From: Sinorhizobium meliloti
Lineage (GTDB): Bacteria; Pseudomonadota; Alphaproteobacteria; Rhizobiales; Rhizobiaceae
Direction of reading: 5' to 3'
DNA: 32,000 nt
NCBI RefSeq assembly: GCF_017876815.1
Contig: NZ_JAGIOS010000004.1
Coordinates: 1 to 32,000 of the forward strand
This document shows positions 1 to 32,000 of the stretch, piece by piece. Made by a program: the position numbers and the translations under genes. How positions within the stretch are numbered: position 1 is the stretch's first letter; the number at the start of each line of letters is the position of its first letter. A model generated the notes under the pieces. It saw only the letters and a list, made by a program, of their open reading frames with translations, was not told the origin of the DNA and ran no database searches.

Positions 1-1969
1 CGAGCGACAGCCGCCGCAGACGCTCCATCATTTGAACGGCCAACAATGAGTGGCCGCCGAGTTCGAAGAAGTTGTCGTGGCGCCCGACCTGCTCGACGCC
101 GAGAAGCTCGGCCCAGATCCCGGCCAGCAGCGTCTCGATCTCGCCCTGCGGCGCCTCGTAGGCCCGACGCGCATAGGCATCGTCGTCGGGGACCGGCAGC
201 GCCTTGCGATCGAGCTTGCCGTTCACCGTCAGCGGCAGTGCATCCAGCCGCACGAAGGCCGACGGCACCATGTAGTCCGGCAGCAGGCCACCCAGATGCG
301 CCCGCAACGACGCAGCAAGCCCGGCGCCATCGGCTTCGGCCGACCCGTCCGTCGTCTTCGCAACCACATAGGCGACGAGCCGCTTGTCGCCCGCCGCATC
401 CGCGTGCGCCACCACCGCGGCATCGCCGACAAGCTCATGCTCCAGCAGCCGGGCGGCGATCTCGCCCGGCTCGATGCGGAAGCCGCGGATCTTCACCTGG
501 TCGTCATTGCGGCCCAGAAACTCGAGATTGCCGTCCGGCAGGTAGCGCGCCAGGTCGCCGCTCCGGTACATCCGGGCGCCGGCCTTGCCGCTGAACGGAT
601 CCGCCAGGAACCGCTCCGCCGTCAGATCCGGACGGTTCAGGTAGCCGCGCGCCACCCCCGCCCCGCCGATATAAAGCTCACCAACCGCCCCAAACGGAAC
701 CGGCTGACCATGGCCGTCAAGCACATAAAGCCGCGTGTTCGCAATCGGACGGCCGATCGGCACATACCGGTGAGGCGCCTCAATTCTCGTGTCGGTAAGA
801 AAGGTGGTCGCCCAAATCGTAGTCTCCGTCGGACCATAAAGATTTCTGAGAGATTTTACCCTTCTGCCGAGGTTCGAGGCCAGTTCTGAAGGCAACGCTT
901 CGCCGCCACACAACGCACTTAAATCGGGCGCACCCTCCCAGCCGGCGTCGAAGAGCATACGCCACGCCGCGGGGTCGCCTGCATCACAGTTATCTTCTGA
1001 TGGGATAGATACCGCTGTAATCCAATAACACTGGTTCCGTGAGCAACAACGACGTTAGCTCCCACGGCCAGTGGCAGATAGAGTTCCAGCCCCGCAATGT
1101 CGAAAGAGATCGTCGTGATCGCGAGGAGTGAATCGCGCTCTGTGAGGCCCGATACATCTAAAAGAGCGCGTAGAACATTGAGAACACTTGCATGCTCGAC
1201 CATGACGCCCTTAGGCGTGCCGGTGGATCCCGATGTGTAGATGACATAGGCGAGATTGCGGGCTGTCAGGCCGAGGGCATGCGGGTCGGGATCGTCAGGG
1301 ACTGGTCGGCCCAAGCGGCATGGCCGCATCGAGATCGACCGCGCTCAGATCGGCGATTGCCTCGGCGCCCAACGCCGCGCGGCCGGCGGCGTCGCAAAGC
1401 AGCAGCCGCGGGCCGGCATCGTCGAGCAACTGCCGCAGCCGTTCGCCGGATAGGCCGGGTCGAGCGGCACATAGGCGCCGCCGGCCTTGAGGATCGCCAG
1501 CAGTCCCACCACCATCGCCGGGCTGCGCTCGACGCAGATCGCCACTGGCTGGTCCGGCCTCACCCCGAGCCCGATCAGATGATGGGCCAGCCGGTTGGCA
1601 TCGGCATTGAGCGCGCCATAGGAGATCGACTGCTCTTCGAAGACCAGTGCGACCGCGTCGGCACCCGGCGCACCTGCGCCTCGAACAGCGCATGCACGCA
1701 AAGATCCGACGGATAGTCCGCTTCCGTCCGGTTCAACTCCTCCAGCAGGTAGCTGCGCTCCTCAGCCGGAAGAATGTCGAGCTCGCGCACCGGCCTATCG
1801 GGCGCTTGCTCCAGCGCGTCGACCAGTTGCTCGAGCGCCCGCTGCATATAGCCGCAGATCCGATCGGCGGAGATCGTTCGACCGCATCCGCCGTGAGCCC
1901 CAGCTCCTGACCAAAATCATCCACCGACAATGTCAGCGGGTAGTTGGTCCGTTCCTCGCCCCCAGCCAT
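1..1969 (-). pseudogene. Frameshift-broken, 3'-partial continuation of the same NRPS (module 10: end of C domain, Gly-type A domain, start of T domain); may be a sequencing artefact rather than a true pseudogene
   Basis: Minus-strand fragments 1733..1969, 1575..1847, 1345..1701 and 919..1329, plus an unlisted frame open to nt 1, together reproduce the C-end/A/T sequence of intact module 5 (16159-19431). Continuity is broken by seven 1-nt deletions relative to the other copies, at 971-974, 1298/1299, 1317-1318, 1448-1449, 1660-1661, 1876 and 1959-1963. The GGHS Ser codon is at 47-49. The Ser-to-Ser distance M9-M10 is 3266 nt, exactly 3273 (the M4-M5 distance) minus 7. Confidence 0.85.
758..1191 (-). 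other. A-domain specificity cassette c (copy 3 of 3), Gly, carrying a 1-nt deletion
   Basis: Nucleotide sequence matches 16975-17409 except that the G5 run is G4 at 971-974, shifting the frame ([12 protein letters not shown] instead of [12 protein letters not shown]). Confidence 0.8.
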
Positions 1970-4900
1970 TCCATGCCGGACAGCACGTCGCTTGTTCCCT
2001 CGCCGGCCATGGCCGGCGTGTTGTGGCGATAGTTCAGCAGCGCACTGAACAGTGGCGCTGGTGCGGCAATATCGCAGCAGCGTTGCGCCAATGCCAGCGA
2101 GGCATGCTCGTGTGAGAGCAATTCGGCCAGACGGGCGTGGGCGATACGCACACTTTCCTCGACCCCGGTCTCATCCAGATCCAGCCGCAACGGCAAGGTA
2201 TTCATGAACAAGCCCATGGCACGGTCGGCGCCGGCACCCGCATGCATGCGGCCGAACAGCACCGTGCCGAACACCACCTGCTCGCGCCCGCTGCTCAGCG
2301 CCACCACCTGGGCCCAGGCCAGATGGCAAAGGCTAGCCAGACTCACCCCCAGCCGCCGCGCCTGGTGGCGCAGCCGATCGTTGAGCGCCTGCGGCAGCAT
2401 CCGCCGTGCCTCGCGGGATCCGCGGCCGTCGCCGTAGACCTCGCTCAGAGCGAACGGCAGGGTCGGCTCGTCGATGTCGGCCAGCATCTCCCGGAAGAAC
2501 GCTTCATGCGCTTTGGCATCCATGCCAAGCCGCGCCTGCGCCACCAGGTTGCGGAACGGCTGCGGCGCTGCAAGCTCATGCGCGCGCCCCTGCAGCACGG
2601 CCCGGACCTCGGCATGCATCACTTCGGCCGTCGTATGATCGCCGATCAGATGGTGCTGCAACACCAAAAGCAGCCAGCGCCCACTGCCCGGTTCGCGCGC
2701 GATCACGAACCGCATCAGCGGCGCCCGGCCAAGGTCGAGACGGTACTGGCGCGGATCGAACCGCCGCCTGAGCTCATCGGCGCCGGAACCATCACAGCCC
2801 TCCAGCTCGACCTCGAGCACATCCAAGGCCGCCTTGCGCCAGACAACCTGCGCCGGGCTCGACAGACCCTCCCAGACAAAGGCCGTGCGCAGAATGTCGT
2901 GGCGGTCGACCACCTGTTGAACCGCAGCAAGGTAGCGATCGAGCACACCCCGCTCGGCAAAGGCCATCTGCGACATCAGGAGATAGGGGTCACCCTGGGT
3001 TGCCAGCAAATGATGGAACAGAATGCCGTCCTGCAGCGGCGACAGGCCATAGATATCCTGGATATTGCCGACGCCGCCGGGCACCGTCGACACGATCCGG
3101 TCGATCTCCGGTTGGGTAAGATCGATCAGCGGCAGCATCTGCGGCGTGATCGCCGTACTCTGTTCCGTGATCGGGTTGGCAGGCACCTCCACCTCCCGGT
3201 GGCTGCCAAGACTGGCGGCCAGATCGGCAAGCATCGGCTTTGCAAATACGGTGCGAACCTCGACCCCGAGCGACAGCCGCCGCAGACGCTCCATCATTTG
3301 AACGGCCAACAATGAGTGGCCGCCGAGCTCGAAGAAGTTGTCGTGGCGCCCGACCTGCTCGACGCCGAGAAGCTCGGCCCAGATCCCGGCCAGCAGCGTC
3401 TCGATCTCGCCCTGCGGCGCCTCGTAGGCCCGACGCGCATAGGCATCGTCGTCGGGGACCGGCAGCGCCTTGCGGTCGAGCTTGCCGTTCACCGTCAGCG
3501 GCAGTGCATCCAGCCGCACGAAGGCCGACGGCACCATGTAGTCCGGTAGCAGGCCACCCAGATGCGCCCGCAACGACGCAGCAAGCCCGGCGCCATCGGC
3601 TTCGGCCGACCCGTCCGTCGTCTTCGCAACCACATAGGCGACGAGCCGCTTGTCGCCCGCCGCATCCGCGTGCGCCACCACCGCGGCATCGCCGACAAGC
3701 TCATGCTCCAGCAGCCGGGCGGCGATCTCGCCCGGCTCGATGCGGAAGCCGCGGATCTTCACCTGGTCGTCATTGCGGCCCAGAAACTCGAGATTGCCGT
3801 CCGGCAGGTAGCGCGCCAGGTCGCCGCTCCGGTACATCCGGGCGCCGGCCTTGCCGCTGAACGGATCCGCCAGGAACCGCTCCGCCGTCAGATCCGGACG
3901 GTTCAGGTAGCCGCGCGCCACCCCCGCCCCGCCGATATAAAGCTCACCAACCGCCCCAAACGGAACCGGCTGACCATGGCCGTCCAGCAGATAGATCCGC
4001 GTGTTCGAGATCGGACGCCCGATCGTTTCGACAACAGCCTGTCCCCTCGGCATGCAAATCCAAGTCGAGTACGTCGTTGTCTCCGAAGGGGCGTACAGAT
4101 TGCAAATCTTCTGGACGCGCGTGCTCTCGAATATCCTCTCGATTAGGTCTGCCTTCACCCGCTCGCCCGCCAAATTGATGACGCTTGCCGATGCCGGCAC
4201 GGCTTTCTGGTTGACCAGAGCGGTGATCGCCGAGGGGACCGTGTTGATCAAGGAGGCATCCACGGGCGTTCGGGCCAGCTTCAGTGCATCCTCGACGAGG
4301 TACAGCTTGCTTCCCTGCGAAAGCGGAAGGAAACACTCGTAAACGGACAGATCAAAACAGACCGAGGTCGAGAACAGCGTGCGCCTGATCTCTGATTCGG
4401 CAAACACGCCGCCACTCCAATGCAGCAGGTTCACTGTGTTCCGATGCTCGACCATGACGCCCTTAGGCGTGCCGGTGGATCCCGATGTGTAGATGACATA
4501 GGCGAGATTGCGGGCTGTCAGGCCGAGGGCATGCGGGTCGGGATCGTCAGCGGACTGGTCGGCCCAGGCGGGCATGGCCGTATCGAGATCGACCGCGCTC
4601 AGATCGGCGATTGCCTCGGCGCCCAACGCCGCGCGGCCGGCGGCGTCGCAAAGCAGCAGCCGCGGGCCGGCATCGTCGAGCAACTGCCGCAGCCGTTCGC
4701 CGGGATAGGCCGGGTCGAGCGGCACATAGGCGCCGCCGGCCTTGAGGATCGCCAGCAGTCCCACCACCATCGCCGGGCTGCGCTCGACGCAGATCGCCAC
4801 TGGCTGGTCCGGCCTCACCCCGAGCCCGATCAGATGATGGGCCAGCCGGTTGGCATCGGCATTGAGCGCGCCATAGGAGATCGACTGCTCTTCGAAGACC

Positions 4901-7900
4901 AGTGCGACCGCGTCGGGCACCCGGCGCACCTGCGCCTCGAACAGCGCATGCACGCAAAGATCCGACGGATAGTCCGCTTCCGTCCGGTTCAACTCCTCCA
5001 GCAGGTAGCTGCGCTCCTCAGCCGGAAGAATGTCGAGCTCGCGCACCGGCCTATCGGGCGCTTGCTCCAGCGCGTCGACCAGTTGCTCGAGCGCCCGCTG
5101 CATATAGCCGCAGATCCGATCGGCGGAGATCGGTTCGACCGCATCCGCCGTGAGCCCCAGCTCCTGACCAAAATCATCCACCGACAATGTCAGCGGGTAG
5201 TTGGTCCGTTCCTCGTCCCCCAGCCATTCCATGCCGGACAGCACGTCGCTTGTTCCCTCGCCGGCCATGGCCGGCGTGTTGTGGCGATAGTTCAGCAGCG
5301 CACTGAACAGTGGCGCTGGTGCGGCAATATCGCTGCAGCGTTGCGCCAATGCCAGCGAGGCATGCTCGTGTGAGAGCAATTCGGCCAGACGGGCGTGGGC
5401 GATACGCACACTTTCCTCGACCCCGGTCTCATCCAGATCCAGCCGCAACGGCAAGGTATTCATGAACAAGCCCATGGCACGGTCGGCGCCGGCACCCGCA
5501 TGCATGCGGCCGAACAGCACCGTGCCGAACACCACCTGCTCGCGCCCGCTGCTCAGCGCCACCACCTGGGCCCAGGCCAGATGGCAAAGGCTAGCCAGAC
5601 TCACCCCCAGCCGCCGCGCCTGGTGGCGCAGCCGATCGTTGAGCGCCTGCGGCAGCATCCGCCGTGCCTCGCGGGATCCGCGGCCGTCGCCGTAGACCTC
5701 GCTCAGAGCGAACGGCAGGGTCGGCTCGTCGATGTCGGCCAGCATCTCCCGGAAGAACGCTTCATGCGCTTTGGCATCCATGCCAAGCCGCGCCTGCGCC
5801 ACCAGGTTGCGGAACGGCTGCGGCGCTGCAAGCTCATGCGCGCGCCCCTGCAGCACGGCCCGGACCTCGGCATGCATCACTTCGGCCGTCGTATGATCGC
5901 CGATCAGATGGTGCTGCAACACCAAAAGCAGCCAGCGCCCACTGCCCGGTTCGCGCGCGATCACGAACCGCATCAGCGGCGCCCGGCCAAGGTCGAGACG
6001 GTACTGGCGCGGATCGAACCGCCGCCTGAGCTCATCGGCGCCGGAACCATCACAGCCCTCCAGCTCGACCTCGAGCACATCCAAGGCCGCCTTGCGCCAG
6101 ACAACCTGCGCCGGGCTCGACAGACCCTCCCAGACAAAGGCCGTGCGCAGAATGTCGTGGCGGTCGACCACCTGTTGAACCGCAGCAAGGTAGCGATCGA
6201 GCACACCCCGCTCGGCAAAGGCCATCTGCGACATCAGGAGATAGGGGTCACCCTGGGTTGCCAGCAAATGATGGAACAGAATGCCGTCCTGCAGCGGCGA
6301 CAGGCCATAGATATCCTGGATATTGCCGACGCCGCCGGGCACCGTCGACACGATCCGGTCGATCTCCGGTTGGGTAAGATCGATCAGCGGCAGCATCTGC
6401 GGCGTGATCGCCGTACTCTGTTCCGTGATCGGGTTGGCAGGCACCGCCACCTCCCGGTGGCTGCCAAGACTGGCGGCCAGATCGGCAAGCATCGGCTTTG
6501 CAAATACGGTGCGAACCTCGACCCCGAGCGACAGCCGCCGCAGACGCTCCATCATTTGAACGGCCAACAATGAGTGGCCGCCGAGTTCGAAGAAGTTGTC
6601 GTGGCGCCCGACCTGCTCGACGCCGAGAAGCTCGGCCCAGATCCCGGCCAGCAGCGTCTCGATCTCGCCCTGCGGCGCCTCGTAGGCCCGACGCGCATAG
6701 GCATCGTCGTCGGGGACCGGCAGCGCCTTGCGGTCGAGCTTGCCGTTCACCGTCAGCGGCAGTGCATCCAGCCGCACGAAGGCCGACGGCACCATGTAGT
6801 CCGGTAGCAGGCCACCCAGATGCGCCCGCAACGACGCAGCAAGCCCGGCGCCATCGGCTTCGGCCGACCCGTCCGTCGTCTTCGCAACCACATAGGCGAC
6901 GAGCCGCTTGTCGCCCGCCGCATCCGCGTGCGCCACCACCGCGGCATCGCCGACAAGCTCATGCTCCAGCAGCCGGGCGGCGATCTCGCCCGGCTCGATG
7001 CGGAAGCCGCGGATCTTCACCTGGTCGTCATTGCGGCCCAGAAACTCGAGATTGCCGTCCGGCAGGTAGCGCGCCAGGTCGCCGCTCCGGTACATCCGGG
7101 CGCCGGCCTTGCCGCTGAACCGATCCGCCAGGAACCGCTCCGCCGTCAGATCCGGACGGTTCAGGTAGCCGCGCGCCACCCCCGCCCCGCCGATATAAAG
7201 CTCACCAACCGCCCCAAACGGGACGGGTGCGCCATGACCGTCAAGCACATAAAGCCGCGTGTTCGCAATCGGACGGCCGATCGGGATTGACGTAAGGCCT
7301 TCTACGTCGCCCGTTATTTCGAATGCGGCGCATCCAACGGTGGCCTCTGTCGGACCAAAATGGTTGATCAGGCGCACATTTGGAAAACGCCGCTGCCAAA
7401 GTTGCATGTCTGCTGGAACCAGCGATTCGCCACCAACCATAAGTGCTTTAGTTGGAGGTTGTCCCTCGTTATCATCAATCTTTTTGTTAAGAATGCTCAG
7501 ATGCGAGGGAGTAACTTTAACCAAGTCGAAGGCTTGTCCCTTCTTCAATTCACCGAGAGAGATAATTTGGACAGTTGGATCTAGAAGATGAAGTTTCGTT
7601 CCCGCCAACAGCGGACCGAATAGGGTCGTAACGATGCCATCAAAACTCATTGAATGCGTTACAGGCGAGCCGTTGGACGTTCTTTTGTAAAAGCTTCGAT
7701 TTGACCACTGCAAATAGTTCGACAAGTGTTGATGCTCGACCATGACGCCCTTAGGCGTGCCGGTGGATCCCGATGTGTAGATGACATAGGCGAGATTGCG
7801 GGCTGTCAGGCCGAGGGCATGCGGGTCGGGATCGTCAGCGGACTGGTCGGCCCAGGCGGGCATGGCTGCATCGAGATCGACCGCGCTCAGATCGGCGATT

Positions 7901-10900
7901 GCCTCGGCGCCCAACGCCGCGCGACCGGCGGCGTCGCAAAGCAGCAGCCGCGGGCCGGCATCGTCGAGCAACTGCCGCAGCCGTTCGCCGGGATAGGCCG
8001 GGTCGAGCGGCACATAGGCGCCGCCGGCCTTGAGGATCGCCAGCAGTCCCACCACCATCGCCGGGCTGCGCTCGACGCAGATCGCCACTGGCTGGTCCGG
8101 CCTCACCCCGAGCCCGATCAGATGATGGGCCAGCCGGTTGGCATCGGCATTGAGCGCGCCATAGGAGATCGACTGCTCTTCGAAGACCAGTGCGACCGCG
8201 TCGGGCACCCGGCGCACCTGCGCCTCGAACAGCGCATGCACGCAAAGATCCGACGGATAGTCCGCTTCCGTCCGGTTCAACTCCTCCAGCAGGTAGCTGC
8301 GCTCGTCGGGAGGCAGGATGTCCAGCTCGGACACCGGCTGCTCGGCATCGGCAAGCATCGCCCGCAGCAGCGCCAGCAGATAACCACATTGCCGCTCGAT
8401 CGTCGCCCGGTCGAACAACGCCGTCGCATAACCGAGAGTCCCGGCGATGGCCTCGCCCTGCTCTCCCAGGTTCAGTTCCAGATCGAACTTGACCTGATCG
8501 AGCCCCTCGCCCGCAGCCTCCACCTGCAGCCCCGGCAGGTCCAATGACCCGCCGGTGTTGTTCTGCCAGGCCAGTCCCACCTGGAACAACGGCGTGTGAC
8601 CGAGAGCCCGGGGCGGCTGGACGATCTCCACCACCTGCTCGAACGGCAGGTCCTGATGATCCTGCGCAGTCAAGGCCGCGCGCCGCGCCCGTTCCAGGAG
8701 ATCGGACACGCTCGGCTCGCCCGACAGATCGATTCGAACCGCCAGGGTGTTGACGAAGAAACCGATTAGATCCTCGATCTCGCGGCGACGACGATTGGCC
8801 GTCGGCACACCGATCACGATATCGTCCTGCCCGGACAGGCGCGACAGCACCGCAGCCCAGGCCGCCAGCACTGTCATGAACAACGTCGTGCCATGCTGCC
8901 GGCTCAGCCGCTTGAGCCCGCGCGTCAGAGCCTCATCGATGATAACCGGCACGCTGGCTCCGGCAAACGACTGCTGTGCCGGCCGCGGCCGGTCCGTCGG
9001 CAGCGCCAGACGGGCCGGGGCGCCAGACAGGGTGTCGCGCCAATACTGCGCCTGACGCTGCAGCCGCTCGCCGGACAACCATTGCCGTTGCCAGGCGGCA
9101 TAATCCGGATACTGGATCGCCAGCGGCGGCAAAGGATCGTCCTCTCCAGCCTCAAACGCGCGGTAAAGGCTGCTGAGCTCGCGCACCAGCACCCCCATCG
9201 ACCAGCCGTCCGAGACTATGTGATGCTGCGTCAGCAGAAAGACGTGCTCCTCATCCGCCAGCCGGATCAGCCGGCCGCGGATCAGCGGCTCGCGCGCCAG
9301 ATCGAACGGCGTGCGCGCCTCTTCTTGGCACAGATCCAAAAGCGCGGCTTGCGCATCCGGCCTGTCCCGCAGATCGTGCTCGACCACCGGCAATCCCCTG
9401 TCCCCGGACAAAATCTGGACCTGCGGGTCATCCTCTCCGGCGACGAACGTGCAGCGCAGCGCCTCGTGACGGGCAAACAGGCGGTCAAGGCTGCGCCGCC
9501 AGGCGACACGGTCGAGTCTGCCCTGCAGTCGCCACCCCAGGGGAATGTTATAGTTCGTGCTGTCTTCGTCCAACTGTGCCAAGAACCAGAGACGCTGCTG
9601 CGAATAGGACAGCGGAAGCGCACCATCACGTCCGACTGGCATGATGACCGGTGCTGTCTGCGCACCAGAACCGTTCAGCACTTCGCCAACACTTAGCGCC
9701 AAATCGGCCAATGTTGGCTTGGCGAACAGGATCGCCAGCGGCAGCTCCACTGCCAAGGCCTCGGTCAGCCGGACGAGCACGCGCACCGCCAACAATGAGT
9801 GGCCGCCGAGCTCGAAGAAGTTGTCGTGGCGCCCGACCTGCTCGACGCCGAGAAGCTCGGCCCAGATCCCGGCCAGCAGCGTCTCGATCTCGCCCTGCGG
9901 CGCCTCGTAGGCCCGACGCGCATAGGCATCGTCGTCGGGGACCGGCAGCGCCTTGCGGTCGAGCTTGCCGTTCACCGTCAGCGGCAGTGCATCCAGCCGC
10001 ACGAAGGCCGACGGCACCATGTAGTCCGGTAGCAGGCCACCCAGATGCGCCCGCAACGACGCAGCAAGCCCGGCGCCATCGGCTTCGGCCGACCCGTCCG
10101 TCGTCTTCGCAACCACATAGGCGACGAGCCGCTTGTCGCCCGCCGCATCCGCGTGCGCCACCACCGCGGCATCGCCGACAAGCTCATGCTCCAGCAGCCG
10201 GGCGGCGATCTCGCCCGGCTCGATGCGGAAGCCGCGGATCTTCACCTGGTCGTCATTGCGGCCCAGAAACTCGAGATTGCCGTCCGGCAGGTAGCGCGCC
10301 AGGTCGCCGCTCCGGTACATCCGGGCGCCGGCCTTGCCGCTGAACGGATCCGCCAGGAACCGCTCCGCCGTCAGATCCGGACGGTTCAGGTAGCCGCGCG
10401 CCACCCCCGCCCCGCCGATATAAAGCTCACCAACCGCCCCAAACGGAACCGGCTGACCATGGCCGTCCAGCAGATAGATCCGCGTGTTCGAGATCGGACG
10501 CCCGATCGTTTCGACAACAGCCTGTCCCCTCGGCATGCAAATCCAAGTCGAGTACGTCGTTGTCTCCGAAGGGGCGTACAGATTGCAAATCTTCTGGACG
10601 CGCGTGCTCTCGAATATCCTCTCGATTAGGTCTGCCTTCACCCGCTCGCCCGCCAAATTGATGACGCTTGCCGATGCCGGCACGGCTTTCTGGTTGACCA
10701 GAGCGGTGATCGCCGAGGGGACCGTGTTGATCAAGGAGGCATCCACGGGCGTTCGGGCCAGCTTCAGTGCATCCTCGACGAGGTACAGCTTGCTTCCCTG
10801 CGAAAGCGGAAGGAAACACTCGTAAACGGACAGATCAAAACAGACCGAGGTCGAGAACAGCGTGCGCCTGATCTCTGATTCGGCAAACACGCCGCCACTC

Positions 10901-22900: not shown

Positions 22901-25900
22901 GCCTCGTAGGCCCGACGCGCATAGGCATCGTCGTCGGGGACCGGCAGCGCCTTGCGGTCGAGCTTGCCGTTCACCGTCAGCGGCAGTGCATCCAGCCGCA
23001 CGAAGGCCGACGGCACCATGTAGTCCGGTAGCAGGCCACCCAGATGCGCCCGCAACGACGCAGCAAGCCCGGCGCCATCGGCTTCGGCCGACCCGTCCGT
23101 CGTCTTCGCAACCACATAGGCGACGAGCCGCTTGTCGCCCGCCGCATCCGCGTGCGCCACCACCGCGGCATCGCCGACAAGCTCATGCTCCAGCAGCCGG
23201 GCGGCGATCTCGCCCGGCTCGATGCGGAAGCCGCGGATCTTCACCTGGTCGTCATTGCGGCCCAGAAACTCGAGATTGCCGTCCGGCAGGTAGCGCGCCA
23301 GGTCGCCGCTCCGGTACATCCGGGCGCCGGCCTTGCCGCTGAACCGATCCGCCAGGAACCGCTCCGCCGTCAGATCCGGACGGTTCAGGTAGCCGCGCGC
23401 CACCCCCGCCCCGCCGATATAAAGCTCACCAACCGCCCCAAACGGGACGGGTGCGCCATGACCGTCAAGCACATAAAGCCGCGTGTTCGCAATCGGACGG
23501 CCGATCGGCACATTCGTCGATGCGGAAAGATCTGCAGGGATGTCATGGAAAGCACAACCGACAACCGCTTCCGTCGGGCCATACTCGTTGACCATTCTAG
23601 CCGCCGGCTGGATCTGACGCCATAGCTCGACCGTCGAAGACGACAATGCCTCACCGCCAATGACGAGCACCTCCACCTGACTGGCATCTCCAGCCGACTG
23701 CAGTTGCTGTCCAAGAACATCCAGATGGCTCGGGGTGACATTGACCAGCCCGCACGGTGTGCCGACCCTTGACCTGATCCCCTCGACCTCGTCCCCCTCT
23801 TTCGTAAGCAATGCATGGCCGCCAGAGACCAAAGGCGCAAACAGGCTGTTGACCGTGGCATCGAAGGCGAGCGAAGAGGAGACGACGGATGAGGATATGG
23901 GAGCGTAGCTCTCACGAGCCCAGCTTAGATAATTGGTCATCCCGCGATGCTCGACCATGACGCCCTTAGGCGTGCCGGTGGATCCCGATGTGTAGATGAC
24001 ATAGGCGAGATTGCGGGCTGTCAGGCCGAGGGCATGCGGGTCGGGATCGTCAGCGGACTGGTCGGCCCAGGCGGGCATGGCTGCATCGAGATCGACCGCG
24101 CTCAGATCGGCGATTGCCTCGGCGCCCAACGCCGCGCGACCGGCGGCGTCGCAAAGCAGCAGCCGCGGGCCGGCATCGTCGAGCAACTGCCGCAGCCGTT
24201 CGCCGGGATAGGCCGGGTCGAGCGGCACATAGGCGCCGCCGGCCTTGAGGATCGCCAGCAGTCCCACCACCATCGCCGGGCTGCGCTCGACGCAGATCGC
24301 CACTGGCTGGTCCGGCCTCACCCCGAGCCCGATCAGATGATGGGCCAGCCGGTTGGCATCGGCATTGAGCGCGCCATAGGAGATCGACTGCTCTTCGAAG
24401 ACCAGTGCGACCGCGTCGGGCACCCGGCGCACCTGCGCCTCGAACAGCGCATGCACGCAAAGATCCGACGGATAGTCCGCTTCCGTCCGGTTCAACTCCT
24501 CCAGCAGGTAGCTGCGCTCCTCAGCCGGAAGAATGTCGAGCTCGCGCACCGGCCTATCGGGCGCTTGCTCCAGCGCGTCGACCAGTTGCTCGAGCGCCCG
24601 CTGCATATAGCCGCAGATCCGATCGGCGGAGATCGGTTCGACCGCATCCGCCGTGAGCCCCAGCTCCTGACCAAAATCATCCACCGACAATGTCAGCGGG
24701 TAGTTGGTCCGTTCCTCGTCCCCCAGCCATTCCATGCCGGACAGCACGTCGCTTGTTCCCTCGCCGGCCATGGCCGGCGTGTTGTGGCGATAGTTCAGCA
24801 GCGCACTGAACAGTGGCGCTGGTGCGGCAATATCGCTGCAGCGTTGCGCCAATGCCAGCGAGGCATGCTCGTGTGAGAGCAATTCGGCCAGACGGGCGTG
24901 GGCGATACGCACACTTTCCTCGACCCCGGTCTCATCCAGATCCAGCCGCAACGGCAAGGTATTCATGAACAAGCCCATGGCACGGTCGGCGCCGGCACCC
25001 GCATGCATGCGGCCGAACAGCACCGTGCCGAACACCACCTGCTCGCGCCCGCTGCTCAGCGCCACCACCTGGGCCCAGGCCAGATGGCAAAGGCTAGCCA
25101 GACTCACCCCCAGCCGCCGCGCCTGGTGGCGCAGCCGATCGTTGAGCGCCTGCGGCAGCATCCGCCGTGCCTCGCGGGATCCGCGGCCGTCGCCGTAGAC
25201 CTCGCTCAGAGCGAACGGCAGGGTCGGCTCGTCGATGTCGGCCAGCATCTCCCGGAAGAACGCTTCATGCGCTTTGGCATCCATGCCAAGCCGCGCCTGC
25301 GCCACCAGGTTGCGGAACGGCTGCGGCGCTGCAAGCTCATGCGCGCGCCCCTGCAGCACGGCCCGGACCTCGGCATGCATCACTTCGGCCGTCGTATGAT
25401 CGCCGATCAGATGGTGCTGCAACACCAAAAGCAGCCAGCGCCCACTGCCCGGTTCGCGCGCGATCACGAACCGCATCAGCGGCGCCCGGCCAAGGTCGAG
25501 ACGGTACTGGCGCGGATCGAACCGCCGCCTGAGCTCATCGGCGCCGGAACCATCACAGCCCTCCAGCTCGACCTCGAGCACATCCAAGGCCGCCTTGCGC
25601 CAGACAACCTGCGCCGGGCTCGACAGACCCTCCCAGACAAAGGCCGTGCGCAGAATGTCGTGGCGGTCGACCACCTGTTGAACCGCAGCAAGGTAGCGAT
25701 CGAGCACACCCCGCTCGGCAAAGGCCATCTGCGACATCAGGAGATAGGGGTCACCCTGGGTTGCCAGCAAATGATGGAACAGAATGCCGTCCTGCAGCGG
25801 CGACAGGCCATAGATATCCTGGATATTGCCGACGCCGCCGGGCACCGTCGACACGATCCGGTCGATCTCCGGTTGGGTAAGATCGATCAGCGGCAGCATC

Positions 25901-28900
25901 TGCGGCGTGATCGCCGTACTCTGTTCCGTGATCGGGTTGGCAGGCACCGCCACCTCCCGGTGGCTGCCAAGACTGGCGGCCAGATCGGCAAGCATCGGCT
26001 TTGCAAATACGGTGCGAACCTCGACCCCGAGCGACAGCCGCCGCAGACGCTCCATCATTTGAACGGCCAACAATGAGTGGCCGCCGAGTTCGAAGAAGTT
26101 GTCGTGGCGCCCGACCTGCTCGACGCCGAGAAGCTCGGCCCAGATCCCGGCCAGCAGCGTCTCGATCTCGCCCTGCGGCGCCTCGTAGGCCCGACGCGCA
26201 TAGGCATCGTCGTCGGGGACCGGCAGCGCCTTGCGGTCGAGCTTGCCGTTCACCGTCAGCGGCAGTGCATCCAGCCGCACGAAGGCCGACGGCACCATGT
26301 AGTCCGGTAGCAGGCCACCCAGATGCGCCCGCAACGACGCAGCAAGCCCGGCGCCATCGGCTTCGGCCGACCCGTCCGTCGTCTTCGCAACCACATAGGC
26401 GACGAGCCGCTTGTCGCCCGCCGCATCCGCGTGCGCCACCACCGCGGCATCGCCGACAAGCTCATGCTCCAGCAGCCGGGCGGCGATCTCGCCCGGCTCG
26501 ATGCGGAAGCCGCGGATCTTCACCTGGTCGTCATTGCGGCCCAGAAACTCGAGATTGCCGTCCGGCAGGTAGCGCGCCAGGTCGCCGCTCCGGTACATCC
26601 GGGCGCCGGCCTTGCCGCTGAACCGATCCGCCAGGAACCGCTCCGCCGTCAGATCCGGACGGTTCAGGTAGCCGCGCGCCACCCCCGCCCCGCCGATATA
26701 AAGCTCACCAACCGCCCCAAACGGAACCGGCTGACCATGGCCGTCAAGCACATAAAGCCGCGTGTTCGCAATCGGACGGCCGATCGGCACATTCGTCGAT
26801 GCGGAAAGATCTGCAGGGATGTCATGGAAAGCACAACCGACAACCGCTTCCGTCGGGCCATACTCGTTGACCATTCTAGCCGCCGGCTGGATCTGACGCC
26901 ATAGCTCGACCGTCGAAGACGACAATGCCTCACCGCCAATGACGAGCACCTCCACCTGACTGGCATCTCCAGCCGACTGCAGTTGCTGTCCAAGAACATC
27001 CAGATGGCTCGGGGTGACATTGACCAGCCCGCACGGTGTGCCGACCCTTGACCTGATCCCCTCGACCTCGTCCCCCTCTTTCGTAAGCAATGCATGGCCG
27101 CCAGAGACCAAAGGCGCAAACAGGCTGTTGACCGTGGCATCGAAGGCGAGCGAAGAGGAGACGACGGATGAGGATATGGGAGCGTAGCTCTCACGAGCCC
27201 AGCTTAGATAATTGGTCATCCCGCGATGCTCGACCATGACGCCCTTAGGCGTGCCGGTGGATCCCGATGTGTAGATGACATAGGCGAGATTGCGGGCTGT
27301 CAGGCCGAGGGCATGCGGGTCGGGATCGTCAGCGGACTGGTCGGCCCAGGCGGGCATGGCTGCATCGAGATCGACCGCGCTCAGATCGTCGATTGCCTCG
27401 GCGCCCAACGCCGCGCGGCCGGCGGCGTCGCAAAGCAGCAGCCGCGGGCCGGCATCGTCGAGCAACTGCCGCAGCCGTTCGCCGGGATAGGCCGGGTCGA
27501 GCGGCACATAGGCGCCGCCGGCCTTGAGGATCGCCAGCAGTCCCACCACCATCGCCGGGCTGCGCTCGACGCAGATCGCCACTGGCTGGTCCGGCCTCAC
27601 CCCGAGCCCGATCAGATGATGGGCCAGCCGGTTGGCATCGGCATTGAGCGCGCCATAGGAGATCGACTGCTCTTCGAAGACCAGTGCGACCGCGTCGGGC
27701 ACCCGGCGCACCTGCGCCTCGAACAGCGCATGCACGCAAAGATCCGACGGATAGTCCGCTTCCGTCCGGTTCAACTCCTCCAGCAGGTAGCTGCGCTCCT
27801 CAGCCGGAAGAATGTCGAGCTCGCGCACCGGCCTATCGGGCGCTTGCTCCAGCGCGTCGACCAGTTGCTCGAGCGCCCGCTGCATATAGCCGCAGATCCG
27901 ATCGGCGGAGATCGGTTCGACCGCATCCGCCGTGAGCCCCAGCTCCTGACCAAAATCATCCACCGACAATGTCAGCGGGTAGTTGGTCCGTTCCTCGTCC
28001 CCCAGCCATTCCATGCCGGACAGCACGTCGCTTGTTCCCTCGCCGGCCATGGCCGGCGTGTTGTGGCGATAGTTCAGCAGCGCACTGAACAGTGGCGCTG
28101 GTGCGGCAATATCGCTGCAGCGTTGCGCCAATGCCAGCGAGGCATGCTCGTGTGAGAGCAATTCGGCCAGACGGGCGTGGGCGATACGCACACTTTCCTC
28201 GACCCCGGTCTCATCCAGATCCAGCCGCAACGGCAAGGTATTCACGAACAAGCCCATGGCACGGTCGGCGCCGGCACCCGCATGCATGCGGCCGAACAGC
28301 ACCGTGCCGAACACCACCTGCTCGCGCCCGCTGCTCAGCGCCACCACCTGGGCCCAGGCCAGATGGCAAAGGCTAGCCAGACTCACCCCCAGCCGCCGCG
28401 CCTGGTGGCGCAGCCGATCGTTGAGCGCCTGCGGCAGCATCCGCCGTGCCTCGCGGGATCCGCGGCCGTCGCCGTAGACCTCGCTCAGAGCGAACGGCAG
28501 GGTCGGCTCGTCGATGTCGGCCAGCATCTCCCGGAAGAACGCTTCATGCGCTTTGGCATCCATGCCAAGCCGCGCCTGCGCCACCAGGTTGCGGAACGGC
28601 TGCGGCGCTGCAAGCTCATGCGCGCGCCCCTGCAGCACGGCCCGGACCTCGGCATGCATCACTTCGGCCGTCGTATGATCGCCGATCAGATGGTGCTGCA
28701 ACACCAAAAGCAGCCAGCGCCCACTGCCCGGTTCGCGCGCGATCACGAACCGCATCAGCGGCGCCCGGCCAAGGTCGAGACGGTACTGGCGCGGATCGAA
28801 CCGCCGCCTGAGCTCATCGGCGCCGGAACCATCACAGCCCTCCAGCTCGACCTCGAGCACATCCAAGGCCGCCTTGCGCCAGACAACCTGCGCCGGGCTC

Positions 28901-31900
28901 GACAGACCCTCCCAGACAAAGGCCGTGCGCAGAATGTCGTGGCGGTCGACCACCTGTTGAACCGCAGCAAGGTAGCGATCGAGCACACCCCGCTCGGCAA
29001 AGGCCATCTGCGACATCAGGAGATAGGGGTCACCCTGGGTTGCCAGCAAATGATGGAACAGAATGCCGTCCTGCAGCGGCGACAGGCCATAGATATCCTG
29101 GATATTGCCGACGCCGCCGGGCACCGTCGACACGATCCGGTCGATCTCCGGTTGGGTAAGATCGATCAGCGGCAGCATCTGCGGCGTGATCGCCGTACTC
29201 TGTTCCGTGATCGGGTTGGCAGGCACCGCCACCTCCCGGTGGCTGCCAAGACTGGCGGCCAGATCGGCAAGCATCGGCTTTGCAAATACGGTGCGAACCT
29301 CGACCCCGAGCGACAGCCGCCGCAGACGCTCCATCATTTGAACGGCCAACAATGAGTGGCCGCCGAGCTCGAAGAAGTTGTCGTGGCGCCCGACCTGCTC
29401 GACGCCGAGAAGCTCGGCCCAGATCCCGGCCAGCAGCGTCTCGATCTCGCCCTGCGGCGCCTCGTAGGCCCGACGCGCATAGGCATCGTCGTCGGGGACC
29501 GGCAGCGCCTTGCGATCGAGCTTGCCGTTCACCGTCAGCGGCAGTGCATCCAGCCGCACGAAGGCCGACGGCACCATGTAGTCCGGTAGCAGGCCACCCA
29601 GATGCGCCCGCAACGACGCAGCAAGCCCGGCGCCATCGGCTTCGGCCGACCCGTCCGTCGTCTTCGCAACCACATAGGCGACGAGCCGCTTGTCGCCCGC
29701 CGCATCCGCGTGCGCCACCACCGCGGCATCGCCGACAAGCTCATGCTCCAGCAGCCGGGCGGCGATCTCGCCCGGCTCGATGCGGAAGCCGCGGATCTTC
29801 ACCTGGTCGTCATTGCGGCCCAGAAACTCGAGATTGCCGTCCGGCAGGTAGCGCGCCAGGTCGCCGCTCCGGTACATCCGGGCGCCGGCCTTGCCGCTGA
29901 ACCGATCCGCCAGGAACCGCTCCGCCGTCAGATCCGGACGGTTCAGGTAGCCGCGCGCCACCCCCGCCCCGCCGATATAAAGCTCACCAACCGCCCCAAA
30001 CGGAACCGGCTGACCATGGCCGTCAAGCACATAAAGCCGCGTGTTCGCAATCGGACGGCCGATCGGCACATTCGTCGATGCGGAAAGATCTGCAGGGATG
30101 TCATGGAAAGCACAACCGACAACCGCTTCCGTCGGGCCATACTCGTTGACCATTCTAGCCGCCGGCTGGATCTGACGCCATAGCTCGACCGTCGAAGACG
30201 ACAATGCCTCACCGCCAATGACGAGCACCTCCACCTGACTGGCATCTCCAGCCGACTGCAGTTGCTGTCCAAGAACATCCAGATGGCTCGGGGTGACATT
30301 GACCAGCCCGCACGGTGTGCCGACCCTTGACCTGATCCCCTCGACCTCGTCCCCCTCTTTCGTAAGCAATGCATGGCCGCCAGAGACCAAAGGCGCAAAC
30401 AGGCTGTTGACCGTGGCATCGAAGGCGAGCGAAGAGGAGACGACGGATGAGGATATGGGAGCGTAGCTCTCACGAGCCCAGCTTAGATAATTGGTCATCC
30501 CGCGATGCTCGACCATGACGCCCTTAGGCGTGCCGGTGGATCCCGATGTGTAGATGACATAGGCGAGATTGCGGGCTGTCAGGCCGAGGGCATGCGGGTC
30601 GGGATCGTCAGCGGACTGGTCGGCCCAGGCGGGCATGGCTGCATCGAGATCGACCGCGCTCAGATCGGCGATTGCCTCGGCGCCCAACGCCGCGCGACCG
30701 GCGGCGTCGCAAAGCAGCAGCCGCGGGCCGGCATCGTCGAGCAACTGCCGCAGCCGTTCGCCGGGATAGGCCGGGTCGAGCGGCACATAGGCGCCGCCGG
30801 CCTTGAGGATCGCCAGCAGTCCCACCACCATCGCCGGGCTGCGCTCGACGCAGATCGCCACTGGCTGGTCCGGCCTCACCCCGAGCCCGATCAGATGATG
30901 GGCCAGCCGGTTGGCATCGGCATTGAGCGCGCCATAGGAGATCGACTGCTCTTCGAAGACCAGTGCGACCGCGTCGGGCACCCGGCGCACCTGCGCCTCG
31001 AACAGCGCATGCACGCAAAGATCCGACGGATAGTCCGCTTCCGTCCGGTTCAACTCCTCCAGCAGGTAGCTGCGCTCGTCGGGAGGCAGGATGTCCAGCT
31101 CGGACACCGGCTGCTCGGCATCGGCAAGCATCGCCCGCAGCAGCGCCAGCAGATAACCACATTGCCGCTCGATCGTCGCCCGGTCGAACAACGCCGTCGC
31201 ATAACCGAGAGTCCCGGCGATGGCCTCGCCCTGCTCTCCCAGGTTCAGTTCCAGATCGAACTTGACCTGATCGAGCCCCTCGCCCGCAGCCTCCACCTGC
31301 AGCCCCGGCAGGTCCAATGACCCGCCGGTGTTGTTCTGCCAGGCCAGTCCCACCTGGAACAACGGCGTGTGACCGAGAGCCCGGGGCGGCTGGACGATCT
31401 CCACCACCTGCTCGAACGGCAGGTCCTGATGATCCTGCGCAGTCAAGGCCGCGCGCCGCGCCCGTTCCAGGAGATCGGACACGCTCGGCTCGCCCGACAG
31501 ATCGATTCGAACCGCCAGGGTGTTGACGAAGAAACCGATTAGATCCTCGATCTCGCGGCGACGACGATTGGCCGTCGGCACACCGATCACGATATCGTCC
31601 TGCCCGGACAGGCGCGACAGCACCGCAGCCCAGGCCGCCAGCACTGTCATGAACAACGTCGTGCCATGCTGCCGGCTCAGCCGCTTGAGCCCGCGCGTCA
31701 GAGCCTCATCGATGATAACCGGCACGCTGGCTCCGGCAAACGACTGCTGTGCCGGCCGCGGCCGGTCCGTCGGCAGCGCCAGACGGGCCGGGGCGCCAGA
31801 CAGGGTGTCGCGCCAATACTGCGCCTGACGCTGCAGCCGCTCGCCGGACAACCATTGCCGTTGCCAGGCGGCATAATCCGGATACTGGATCGCCAGCGGC

Positions 31901-32000
31901 GGCAAAGGATCGTCCTCTCCAGCCTCAAACGCGCGGTAAAGGCTGCTGAGCTCGCGCACCAGCACCCCCATCGACCAGCCGTCCGAGACTATGTGATGCT
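1933..32000 (-). CDS. Giant multimodular non-ribosomal peptide synthetase (NRPS), 5'-partial; nine complete C-A-T modules plus the start of a tenth in one uninterrupted frame
   Basis: Single minus-strand ORF 1933..31971 (10,012 aa) in the supplied track. The frame stays open to nt 32000. The condensation His-motif HHIVSDGW is encoded at 31975-31998, upstream of the first listed Met, so that Met (31971) is internal and the true start lies beyond the window. The translation shows repeated canonical NRPS motifs: C (HHxxxD), A3 [42 protein letters not shown]10 NGKLDRKAL, and [11 protein letters not shown]. Confidence 0.97.
3208..6465 (-). other. NRPS module M9: C(HHLIGDH type)-A(cassette b, Cys-type)-T
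   Basis: C ~5069-6319 (N-terminal HHLLATQGD 6247-6273; HHLIGDH 5893-5913). A ~3460-4965 (A3 4459-4491; cassette b 3985-4443). T ~3208-3414 (Ser codon 3313-3315; AVQMMERL type). Confidence 0.9.
3985..4443 (-). other. A-domain specificity cassette b (copy 3 of 3), Cys-type
   Basis: Same translated block as 20209-20667. The antisense ORFs 3944..4336 and 20168..20560 are identical. Confidence 0.8.
6466..9690 (-). other. NRPS module M8: C(LCL-like)-A(cassette d, Asp-like)-T
   Basis: C ~8357-9619 (HHIVSDGW 9202-9225). A ~6718-8253 (A3 7747-7779; cassette d 7282-7731). T ~6466-6672 (Ser codon 6571-6573; AVQMMERL type). Confidence 0.9.
7282..7731 (-). other. A-domain specificity cassette d (single copy); manual code DGTKMGHVGK, Asp-like
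   Basis: QHLSNYLQW...[12 protein letters not shown]...LVKVTPSHL...LMVGGESL...[14 protein letters not shown]...LTSIPIGRP (150 codons). T239/K278/H322 match the Asp signature DLTKVGHIGK (7 of 10 residues). Hand-counted GC is 215/450 (about 48 %). Confidence 0.8.
9691..12885 (-). other. NRPS module M7: C(LCL-like)-A(cassette b, Cys-type)-T(variant)
   Basis: C ~11552-12814 ([13 protein letters not shown] start; HHIVSDGW 12397-12420). A ~9943-11448 (A3 10942-10974; cassette b 10468-10926). T ~9691-9897 (Ser codon 9796-9798; [12 protein letters not shown] type). Confidence 0.9.
10468..10926 (-). other. A-domain specificity cassette b (copy 2 of 3), Cys-type
   Basis: Same translated block as 20209-20667. 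The antisense ORFs 10427..10819 and 20168..20560 are identical. Confidence 0.8.
12886..16158 (-). other. NRPS module M6: C(HHLIGDH type)-A(cassette c, Gly)-T(variant)
   Basis: C ~14762-16012 (HHLIGDH 15586-15606). A ~13138-14658 (A3 14152-14184; cassette c 13702-14136). T ~12886-13092 (Ser codon 12991-12993; [12 protein letters not shown]-type C-terminal half, which precedes an LCL-like C domain). Confidence 0.9.
13702..14136 (-). other. A-domain specificity cassette c (copy 2 of 3), Gly
   Basis: Same translated block as 16975-17409. Confidence 0.85.
16159..19431 (-). other. NRPS module M5: C(HHLIGDH type)-A(cassette c, Gly)-T
   Basis: C ~18035-19285 (HHLIGDH 18859-18879). A ~16411-17931 (A3 17425-17457; cassette c 16975-17409). 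T ~16159-16365 (Ser codon 16264-16266; AVQMMERL type). Confidence 0.9.
16975..17409 (-). other. A-domain specificity cassette c (copy 1 of 3); manual code DILQLGLIWK, Gly
   Basis: [11 protein letters not shown]...[12 protein letters not shown]...VMQATPAAW...ALCGGEAL...[13 protein letters not shown]...HRYVPIGRP (145 codons). The extracted code equals the textbook Gly signature DILQLGLIWK. Confidence 0.85.
19432..22689 (-). other. NRPS module M4: C(HHLIGDH type)-A(cassette b, Cys-type)-T
   Basis: C ~21293-22543 (HHLIGDH 22117-22137). A ~19684-21189 (A3 20683-20715; cassette b 20209-20667). T ~19432-19638 (Ser codon 19537-19539; AVQMMERL type). Confidence 0.9.
20209..20667 (-). other. A-domain specificity cassette b (copy 1 of 3); manual code DLYNNALTYK, Cys-type
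   Basis: RNTVNLLHW...[12 protein letters not shown]...LINTVPSAI...VINLAGERV...[14 protein letters not shown]...[17 protein letters not shown]. The divergent block extends past IGRP to the LLDG codons. APSE in place of GPTE, together with the FDLSVYE and NLAGE motifs, is what I recall for Cys-activating A domains. Confidence 0.8.
22690..25968 (-). other. NRPS module M3: C(HHLIGDH type)-A(cassette a)-T
   Basis: C ~24572-25822 (HHLIGDH 25396-25416). A ~22942-24468 (A3 23962-23994; cassette a 23506-23946). T ~22690-22896 (Ser codon 22795-22797; AVQMMERL type). Confidence 0.9.
23506..23946 (-). other. A-domain specificity cassette a (copy 3 of 3)
   Basis: Same translated block as 30064-30504. 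Its downstream flank differs (GHGAPVPFG instead of GHGQPVPFG; SNP cluster 23445-23461). Confidence 0.8.
25969..29247 (-). other. NRPS module M2: C(HHLIGDH type)-A(cassette a)-T
   Basis: C ~27851-29101 (HHLIGDH 28675-28695). A ~26221-27747 (A3 27241-27273; cassette a 26785-27225). T ~25969-26175 (Ser codon 26074-26076; AVQMMERL type). Confidence 0.9.
26785..27225 (-). other. A-domain specificity cassette a (copy 2 of 3)
   Basis: Same translated block as 30064-30504. The antisense ORFs 26664..27194 and 29943..30473 have identical translations. Confidence 0.8.
29248..32000 (-). other. NRPS module M1: C(LCL-like, partial)-A(cassette a)-T
   Basis: C ~31130-32000 (HHIVSDGW 31975-31998, N-terminal part outside the window). 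A ~29500-31026 (A3 [11 protein letters not shown] 30520-30552; cassette a 30064-30504). T ~29248-29454 (GGHS Ser codon 29353-29355; AVQMMERL-type C-terminal half). Confidence 0.9.
30064..30504 (-). other. A-domain specificity cassette a (copy 1 of 3); manual 10-residue code DANNVGEVGK, substrate unassigned (Asn-like)
   Basis: 147 codons lie between the conserved VMVEH and IGRP codons: RGMTNYLSW...[11 protein letters not shown]...LVNVTPSHL...LVIGGEAL...[14 protein letters not shown]. The code was extracted by hand alignment to GrsA-PheA positions 235-331 plus the Lys of NGKLDRK. The same sequence occurs in M2 and M3. Confidence 0.8.

Follow-up and report, generated by a model that had tools for sequence, protein, structure and literature searches.

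Near-identical linkers around swapped cassettes in a rhizobial plasmid nonribosomal peptide synthetase point to concerted evolution between modules

The stretch of DNA analysed here (the window; 32,000 nt, positions 1 to 32,000 of contig NZ_JAGIOS010000004.1 in Sinorhizobium meliloti assembly GCF_017876815.1) lies wholly inside one gene, the first of a two-gene nonribosomal peptide synthetase (NRPS) line of 14-16 modules on conjugative accessory plasmids of rhizobia, here of the S. meliloti type. This orphan NRPS has the layout F-like-[C-A-T]n-TE, in which F-like denotes a formyltransferase-like domain and C, A, T, and TE denote condensation, adenylation, carrier, and thioesterase domains. Ten consecutive modules in the window are built of nearly identical DNA interrupted by swapped cassettes. 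With a probability of roughly 85%, we attribute this pattern to concerted evolution by homologous recombination between modules and not to one recent burst of duplication.

The coding strand is the minus strand, where a 10,012-residue open reading frame (ORF; 1933-31971) dominates the window and holds modules 1-9. Sets of Condensation, AMP-binding, AMP-binding_C, and PP-binding domains recur along this ORF, well over the Pfam gathering thresholds, and the four domains in order, with one GGHS motif per 3.2-3.3 kb, identify C-A-T modules of a type I NRPS. At its 5′ edge in the coding sense, the window reads through HHIVSDGWS, a C-domain active-site motif; the ATG listed for the ORF is therefore not a start, and the gene runs off the window. 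The ten carrier Ser codons of the GGHS motifs are located on the minus strand at 29353-29355, 26074-26076, 22795-22797, 19537-19539, 16264-16266, 12991-12993, 9796-9798, 6571-6573, 3313-3315, and 47-49, with successive spacings of 3279, 3279, 3258, 3273, 3273, 3195, 3225, 3258, and 3266 nt. An earlier note on this DNA had listed ten such codons with these nine spacings, which our coordinates match exactly, and had remarked that every intact spacing is a multiple of 3. This remark is correct, as all spacings but the last are divisible by 3 and the last equals 3273 minus seven 1-nt deletions.

When the nine Ser-to-Ser units (U1-U9) were aligned against each other and identity was profiled in 90-nt windows, each module resolved into four segments with sharp edges, where identity in the 90-nt windows drops from 99-100% to 45-55%. 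Segment (i) extends from the carrier Ser to ~20 residues before a 13-residue CA motif, comprises the T-domain C-terminus together with the C domain, and exists as two alleles of 1523 and 1460 nt, which are ~45-50% identical to each other but 99.8-100% identical among copies of either allele in the window. The 1523-nt allele is present seven times (six copies are exactly this long, and the seventh, in module 10, is two bases short). The 1460-nt allele is present in two complete copies, and the C domain cut off by the 5′ window edge belongs to the same type and is 100% identical over 1100 nt. Segment (ii), a 608-nt CA-A3 linker ending just past the A3 motif, is common to all ten modules. Segment (iii) is an A-core cassette of 416-446 nt, which spans A3 to just before A6 and includes Stachelhaus positions 235-331; the window has four families of it, ordered a-a-a-b-c-c-b-g-b-c. 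Segment (iv), again common to all modules, is a 711-nt A6-T1 linker that starts at PIGRPIANT, takes in A6-A10 and the N-terminal half of the T domain, and reaches the Ser. Two kinds of cassette are swapped, the A core and the two-allele unit of T C-terminus plus C domain, and the breakpoints fall directly after GGHSLLAV, ~20 residues before the CA motif, directly after A3, and directly before PIGRPIANT.

Both linkers have a mean pairwise identity of 98.9% among the ten modules, with minima of 97.8% for the 608-nt and 97.6% for the 711-nt linker; most 90-nt windows are 99.4-100% identical, and synonymous divergence (dS) is 0.025-0.027. Whole Ser-to-Ser units can also be almost the same (99.7% identity for U1 and U2, 99.9% for U3 and U8, and 99.8-99.9% for U4, U5, and U9). 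The all-versus-all alignment thus bears out the near-identity of the scaffold claimed in the earlier note, and the segments of ~570 and ~700 nt that it described as shared by modules for different substrates correspond to the 608- and 711-nt linkers measured here.

Judged by motifs, the 1523-nt allele appears to encode a dual epimerisation/condensation (E/C) domain and the 1460-nt allele an LCL domain. The former contains HHLLATQGD 101 residues past the Ser, near the domain's N-terminus, and this element is absent from the latter; an HH[I/L]xxxxGD motif is specific to dual E/C domains (PMC1894796). The 1460-nt allele contains only the canonical HHIVSDG, as in an LCL domain. The E/C units would then epimerise the upstream residue. 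The C-terminal half of each T domain co-varies with the C domain that follows, reading LAVQMME before E/C units and LAVRVLV before LCL units. Specificity codes were extracted by alignment to a GrsA-PheA fragment, a procedure validated by recovery of the code DAWTIAAICK. The A-core codes in the window are DANNVGEVGK (a), DLYNNALTYK (b), DILQLGLIWK (c), and DGTKMGHVGK (g), and relatives add DFWNIGMVHK (d) and DAWLLGNVVK (e). By comparison with published code tables, family a would specify an Asn-like substrate, b Ala, and c Gly; family g is uncertain and presumably Asp-like.

Multiple comparisons support concerted evolution of the segments around these cassettes. The set comprised the window, the plasmids of ml46, WSM419 (NC_009622.1), and AK21, and the loci of Bradyrhizobium sp. 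2S1 and Mesorhizobium mediterraneum R31; dS was calculated from protein-guided codon alignments with frames anchored on the Ser codon. First, linkers among the modules of one plasmid have mean identities of 94.8-99.4% and dS values of 0.010-0.049 in the six assemblies, whereas linkers compared between genera are 77-84% identical with dS values of 0.43-0.65. The lowest within-plasmid linker identity (85-98%) exceeds the highest between-genus value (~84%), and paralogues are closer to each other than orthologues are. The C units likewise are 99.3-100% identical within a plasmid and 80-83% identical between genera. For example, five Bradyrhizobium E/C units are 100% identical to one another but only 81% identical to the Sinorhizobium E/C unit.

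Second, the A-core cassettes cluster by family across genera, with dS values of 0.49-0.75. Families a, b, d, e, f, and h are each shared by two or more genera. Sinorhizobium, Bradyrhizobium, and Mesorhizobium have the same b, d, and e codes, and each of the three has both C types. The multi-cassette, two-chirality architecture therefore predates the split of the plasmid lineages, and the segments around the cassettes have been homogenised separately in each lineage.

Third, substitutions specific to one lineage are present in all or many of its copies. In counts covering the LCL units, the E/C units, and the A6-T1 linker (the CA-A3 rows were mis-registered and left out), 14 sites distinguish the five LCL copies of ml46, without exception, from the five of WSM419, and 17 distinguish them from the six of AK21, which is of the same species. 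The corresponding all-versus-all differences between plasmids number 6-7 in E/C units and 4-6 in the A6-T1 linker, and alleles private to a single copy number 0-1 in LCL units and 0-7 in E/C units. Fourth, the ends of the array are kept in ml46, in WSM419, and in AK21 as far as it is covered, with an a-a-a start and an a′-a-...-e-c end, and the divergent a′ cassette always directly precedes an a module in the second gene. Gene conversion predicts such conserved positions together with substitutions in every copy; independent re-duplication does not.

Finally, the pattern holds in a sequence finished by a different route. WSM419 was completed from Sanger reads at ~13x, mate pairs and PCR being used to resolve repeats (PMC3035259), and contains 16 modules whose nine E/C units are 99.3-99.9% identical and whose linkers are ~99% identical; the phenomenon is therefore real and not an assembly artefact. 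In this plasmid, an Ala-to-Thr change beside the carrier Ser (GGHSLLTVQMME; GGHSLLT) is present in five of the nine E/C-type T domains (modules 1, 2, 4, 6, and 15) and in none of those in the S. meliloti plasmids examined. The Thr variant looks as though it is partway through its spread among paralogues.

The closest plasmid record, CP140885.1 (pMl1 of S. meliloti ml46), is 99.86% identical over window positions 4444-32000, and cassette order in modules 1-8 is the same. Within these modules, 32 of the 35 differences fall at sites that vary among paralogues. Only 20 of 1226 scaffold (linker) columns vary, and 25 of 27 differences between the window and ml46 reuse alleles of other modules (binomial P ~7e-43); two short linked tracts comprise 7 and 4 sites. 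This reuse fits ongoing conversion but is supporting rather than decisive, because short-read polishing errors in repeats could give the same pattern. Collinearity stops exactly at the core of module 9, with modules 9-10 reading b-c in the window and c-b in ml46, a difference that insertion of one module or exchange of two cassettes would account for. The tenth T domain in ml46 is of the gene-ending type, whereas that in the window is the LAVQMME type that precedes E/C units, which implies that the gene in the source strain has at least an eleventh module, of the E/C kind. No other plasmid record has the g-b-c order of modules 8-10, and none is collinear with window positions 1-9000.

In the mechanism that we propose, homologous recombination between modules, by gene conversion with occasional unequal crossing-over, would keep the linkers nearly identical within a plasmid, and copies of the same cassette allele would likewise be homogenised by conversion. 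Unequal exchange in the linkers would alter the number and order of modules, as in the 14-16 modules and differing cassette strings of Sinorhizobium strains. Different cassette alleles would persist because their divergence (~45-55% identity) prevents recombination between them and because of selection on the peptide sequence. The molecular process is presumably RecA-type conversion.

Four points weigh against this account. End-state sequences do not reach the non-reciprocity that defines gene conversion, and successive rounds of unequal crossing-over, under selection for array content, could contribute. The reshuffled variants that separate the window from ml46 are also expected of short-read polishing errors, and the window assembly has local quality problems in the form of seven homopolymer-type deletions. 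The g-b-c order is unique among plasmid records, and a local misassembly at modules 8-10 is possible there. Lastly, the substrate and chirality assignments are read from motifs only.

Very recent serial duplication by itself, with one module amplified to at least ten copies, A cores and C types pasted in later, and no continuing homogenisation, would also give near-zero divergence among copies, and duplication and deletion do occur, as module number differs between strains. We regard it as improbable for several reasons. The same cassette families, codes, and both C types are found in three genera at dS values of 0.5-0.75, and the array ends and the a′ marker hold their relative positions between plasmids. 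Moreover, each plasmid has its own substitutions fixed in all 5-9 copies, even when ml46 is compared with AK21, so that duplication would demand an independent and complete rebuilding of a similarly ordered array in every lineage. The earlier note had left recent serial duplication and gene conversion as alternatives; the dS contrast, the shared cassettes, and the fixed substitutions favour its concerted-evolution branch and disfavour duplication as the sole cause. Homogenisation does act between modules, as the note supposed, but it is not confined to a single gene, since it spans two adjacent NRPS genes in relatives. The comparison of identity and module number with related strains that the note had proposed, carried out here on ml46, WSM419, AK21, Bradyrhizobium, and Mesorhizobium, supports concerted evolution.

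An artefact of assembly or polishing, in which mis-assembled repeats or multi-mapped short reads overwrote the differences between paralogues, is very unlikely. Seven homopolymer-type deletions within 1 kb do reveal an imperfect consensus, the g-b-c order of the window is unique, and the differences from ml46 lie at paralogue-variable sites, as polishing errors would. At least six independent assemblies from four genera, however, share the architecture; the Sanger-finished WSM419 plasmid still has 16 modules and nine E/C units of 99.3-99.9% identity; modules 1-8 of the window and ml46 are collinear at 99.86% identity; and consistent, plasmid-specific fixed differences do not resemble polishing noise. 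Purifying selection at the nucleotide level without recombination, through an overlapping antisense gene or mRNA structure, can be set aside: although a 392-residue antisense ORF is preserved seven times, it covers only E/C domains while homogenisation is just as strong in LCL units and both linkers, coding DNA of 65% GC is expected to contain long antisense frames without stops, the same segments diverge freely at synonymous sites between genera (dS 0.4-0.65), which speaks against a general constraint, and such selection cannot place a new substitution in all copies.

The antisense ORF is 1179 nt long and lies on the plus strand at 2137-3315, 5395-6573, 15088-16266, 18361-19539, 21619-22797, 24898-26076, and 28177-29355. 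Its copies differ by 0-2 nt and 0-1 residues, in keeping with the seven copies and at most one amino-acid change reported earlier. It corresponds to the opposite strand of the seven dual E/C domains, and its terminal TGA is the reverse complement of the Ser codon TCA; nothing marks it as a gene, and we rejected it as one.

The modules are arranged as follows along the minus strand. Module 1 (29353-32000), truncated at the window edge, contains an LCL C domain from HHIVSDG (31112-32000), the CA-A3 linker (30504-31111), core a (30067-30503), and the A6-T1 linker to the Ser (29353-30066). Module 2 (26074-29352) has an E/C unit at 27833-29352, followed by the CA-A3 linker (27225-27832), core a (26788-27224), and the second linker with its Ser (26074-26787). 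In module 3 (22795-26073), the same parts occupy 24554-26073 (E/C), 23946-24553, 23509-23945 (core a), and 22795-23508, and a 16-nt patch at 23446-23461 contains seven linked changes identical to module 8. Module 4 (19537-22794) carries core b at 20251-20666, between linkers at 20667-21274 and 19537-20250, after an E/C unit at 21275-22794. Core c is found in module 5 (16264-19536; E/C unit 18017-19536, linker 17409-18016, core 16978-17408, linker and Ser 16264-16977) and again in module 6 (12991-16263; E/C unit 14744-16263, linker 14136-14743, core 13705-14135, linker and Ser 12991-13704), whose T domain is of the LAVRVLV type that precedes LCL units. Modules 7 and 8 have LCL units. In module 7 (9796-12990), this unit (the 1460-nt allele; 11534-12990) is followed by the linker at 10926-11533, core b at 10510-10925, and the linker with Ser at 9796-10509; in module 8 (6571-9795), the LCL unit (8339-9795) is followed by the linker at 7731-8338, core g at 7285-7730, and the linker with Ser at 6571-7284. 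Module 9 (3313-6570) returns to an E/C unit (5051-6570), with the linker at 4443-5050, core b at 4027-4442, and the linker with Ser at 3313-4026. Module 10 (47-3312), in which the frame is broken, comprises an E/C unit (~1795-3312), the linker (~1187-1794), core c (~761-1186), and the linker with Ser (47-760), with a T domain of the LAVQMME type. Tandem Repeats Finder reported a 21-nt unit (GATCCCGCCCAGCAGCGCCTC) present twice at 77% match at window positions 116-158, with nine more copies ~3.2-3.3 kb apart; this in-frame repeat lies inside the A6-T1 linker, is copied with it, and gives no sign of an independent role.

Relative to modules 5 and 6, module 10 lacks single bases at ~1958-1963, 1876, 1661, 1449, 1318, 1298, and 974 (minus strand; 974-1963 overall). 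Six of these seven deletions shorten runs of C or G, and an apparent stop at 1933-1935 results. Against the near-identical unit 4, unit 9 has two substitutions, seven single-base deletions, and no insertions. Because seven indels against two substitutions fit consensus errors and not decay, the frame break and the stop at 1933 are probably errors of sequencing or consensus. The deletions, confined to 1 kb of an otherwise clean 32-kb window, suggest a locally unpolished stretch of a long-read assembly at 974-1963; only this copy of the module is affected. The homologous gene of ml46 is intact, and the gene is presumably functional in the source strain as well.

The window matches NRPS genes on accessory, mostly conjugative plasmids of S. 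meliloti and S. medicae. Across rhizobia, roughly 75 plasmid loci of this kind are on record, with 24 from Sinorhizobium, 25 from Rhizobium, and 23-32 from Bradyrhizobium. Plasmids of Rhizobium leguminosarum and R. ruizarguesonis match at ~97% nucleotide identity, and those of Bradyrhizobium, Mesorhizobium, other Rhizobium, and Paraburkholderia at 80-86% (Paraburkholderia at ~80%). The ~97% identity of the R. leguminosarum and R. ruizarguesonis genes to those of Sinorhizobium is far above genus-level relatedness, and Paraburkholderia is a beta-rhizobium; the distribution implies repeated horizontal transfer of the NRPS among legume symbionts. The number of modules is 14-16 on Sinorhizobium plasmids and, at the Mesorhizobium and Bradyrhizobium loci, ranges from 8 to at least 12; we parsed 16 modules each in ml46 and WSM419, at least 13 in AK21, at least 12 in Bradyrhizobium sp. 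2S1, and 8 in M. mediterraneum R31. Predicted cassette strings differ among the window, ml46, AK21, and WSM419. We found no published description of this rhizobial plasmid NRPS in a literature search that included look-ups in two plasmid surveys and left most subscription journals outside its reach.

The line in ml46 consists of two intact genes of 33.2 and 20.3 kb with a thioesterase at the end, flanked by genes for a LysR regulator, a nitroreductase/SagB-like protein, and a phosphopantetheinyl transferase (PPTase). The N-terminus of its first NRPS (CP140885.1 stretch L003, 39560-40170, minus strand) is a ~200-residue Formyl_trans_N-like domain (Pfam E=4e-12, a partial match), which is joined directly to an entire copy of the internal LCL unit (99.8% identity over 1933 nt) in an unusual F-C-A-T initiation module. 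The formyltransferase motif N-x-H-x-S-L-L-P by eye reads N-Y-N-D-S-P-L-P in this F-like domain, where the usual His appears to be missing. Beside the second NRPS gene (CP140885.1 stretch L004, minus strand) are ORFs of 511 residues (15114-16649, overlapping the end of the NRPS gene by 4 nt) and 219 residues (13618-14277). Neither has a Pfam match. Both adjoin the cluster in WSM419 too, followed by the SagB-like nitroreductase and the PPTase, and they may provide uncharacterised tailoring or export functions. The sister plasmid of ml56 (CP140923.1) lacks 17,743 nt (9438-27180 in the ml46 sense), starting just after the F-like domain and ending 45 nt inside the CA-A3 linker of module 6. This deletion leaves the F-like domain as a separate ORF and the NRPS annotation in fragments. 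We dropped its interpretation as a scaffold-mediated, in-frame loss of modules 1-5, as its length is not divisible by 3 and one of its ends is outside the repeats; an inactivating deletion or an assembly problem seems likelier than module shuffling.

NRPS engineering is hampered by ignorance of where modules can be cut and rejoined, and this locus offers a natural experiment at DNA resolution. A single pair of linkers serves every module of one line, along with two interchangeable chirality units and at least seven A-core families, and related plasmids from at least four genera, and from several strains per species, have different cassette orders. Field-tested fusion points lie immediately after GGHSLLAV, ~20 residues before the CA motif, immediately after A3, and immediately before PIGxPxxN. 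The plasmids also provide a dated series for estimating the rate of conversion against cassette turnover, and the peptide pathway is an uncharacterised and widely mobile one in agriculturally important legume symbionts. A tentative and rather doubtful extension is that homogenised linkers are maintained for evolvability, as a mobile cassette-shuffling system that would give each strain a different D/L-peptide of ~14-16 residues under diversifying selection by legume hosts or competing rhizobia, with conjugative spread across alpha- and beta-rhizobia.

Four published systems bear comparison with this locus. A unit-and-linker organisation is known from the kahalalide NRPSs of Candidatus Endobryopsis kahalalidifaciens, whose conserved linkers were proposed as recombination hotspots (Li et al., 2024, PMC11428043). 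The rhizobial modules have the same four boundaries (the T1 motif with the GGxS Ser, the CA motif, A3, and an extended A6) and the same parts, namely a chirality unit that extends from mid-T up to the CA motif and an A-core specificity unit placed between a CA-A3 linker and an A6-T1 linker; even the CA motif, ELLETFNxTE(VA)YP in kahalalide NRPSs, is recognisably like the rhizobial 13-residue motif. The systems differ in that exchange in the kahalalide case occurs among 20 separate pathways of an obligate intracellular symbiont, whereas the rhizobial exchange occurs inside one two-gene line on a conjugative plasmid. Kahalalide D-residues arise by separate E domains, whereas the rhizobial D-type unit is a putative dual E/C domain, and only the rhizobial locus has DNA-level linker identity (dS ~0.02) together with a cross-genus series by which the homogenisation can be dated.

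Concerted evolution of NRPS and polyketide synthase (PKS) domains through internal recombination after module duplication has also been described, with a syringopeptin NRPS and the mycolactone PKS as extremes, and in this model cassettes may 'escape' the cycle by functional divergence (Medema et al., 2014, PMC4256081). Paralogous domains cluster by gene cluster both there and here, but the earlier analysis used protein-level trees of whole domains, whereas sub-domain breakpoints, dS, and all-copy fixed differences were measured directly in the rhizobial genes, and the host and cluster differ. The earlier note's premise that NRPS paralogues normally diverge strongly thus overstated the rarity of the pattern, as a subset of NRPSs is known to evolve in concert (PMC4256081, PMC11428043). 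Recombination restricted to the A core, with the C-A linker and Asub-T interface left intact, has been called the main route of nonribosomal peptide diversification (Baunach et al., 2021, PMC8097286), following earlier A-core subdomain swapping (Crusemann, 2013; Kries, 2015; as cited in PMC8097286). Here too, the variable segment is limited to the A core with its specificity residues, and the C-A linker, Asub, and Asub-T interface are native. That work compared orthologous clusters making different congeners, whereas four (window) to six (ml46) families occur in otherwise identical modules of one gene or gene pair here.

GRINS are repeats of >500 bp and >80% identity in assembly-line PKS clusters, attributed to gene conversion, with mean |GC| and |TA| skew above 0.15; they were reported mainly from actinobacterial PKSs and as rare in proteobacteria (Nivina et al., 2021, PMC8256042). 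The rhizobial repeats have the length and identity of GRINS and, like them, are almost the same inside one cluster but much more divergent between homologous clusters. They do not qualify as GRINS by skew, which is 0.07-0.12 in linkers and 0.09-0.14 in C units in 200-nt windows, a size that may not be that of the original paper, and at most 0.125 over whole segments; skew in the linkers is no higher than in the variable A cores. Both the phenomenon and the unit-and-linker anatomy are already published for other NRPSs, and the rhizobial locus, rather than being conceptually new, is an unusually clean case of them, with whole C domains that are 100% identical, dS of ~0.02 against ~0.5, and cross-genus and cross-strain series on mobile plasmids.

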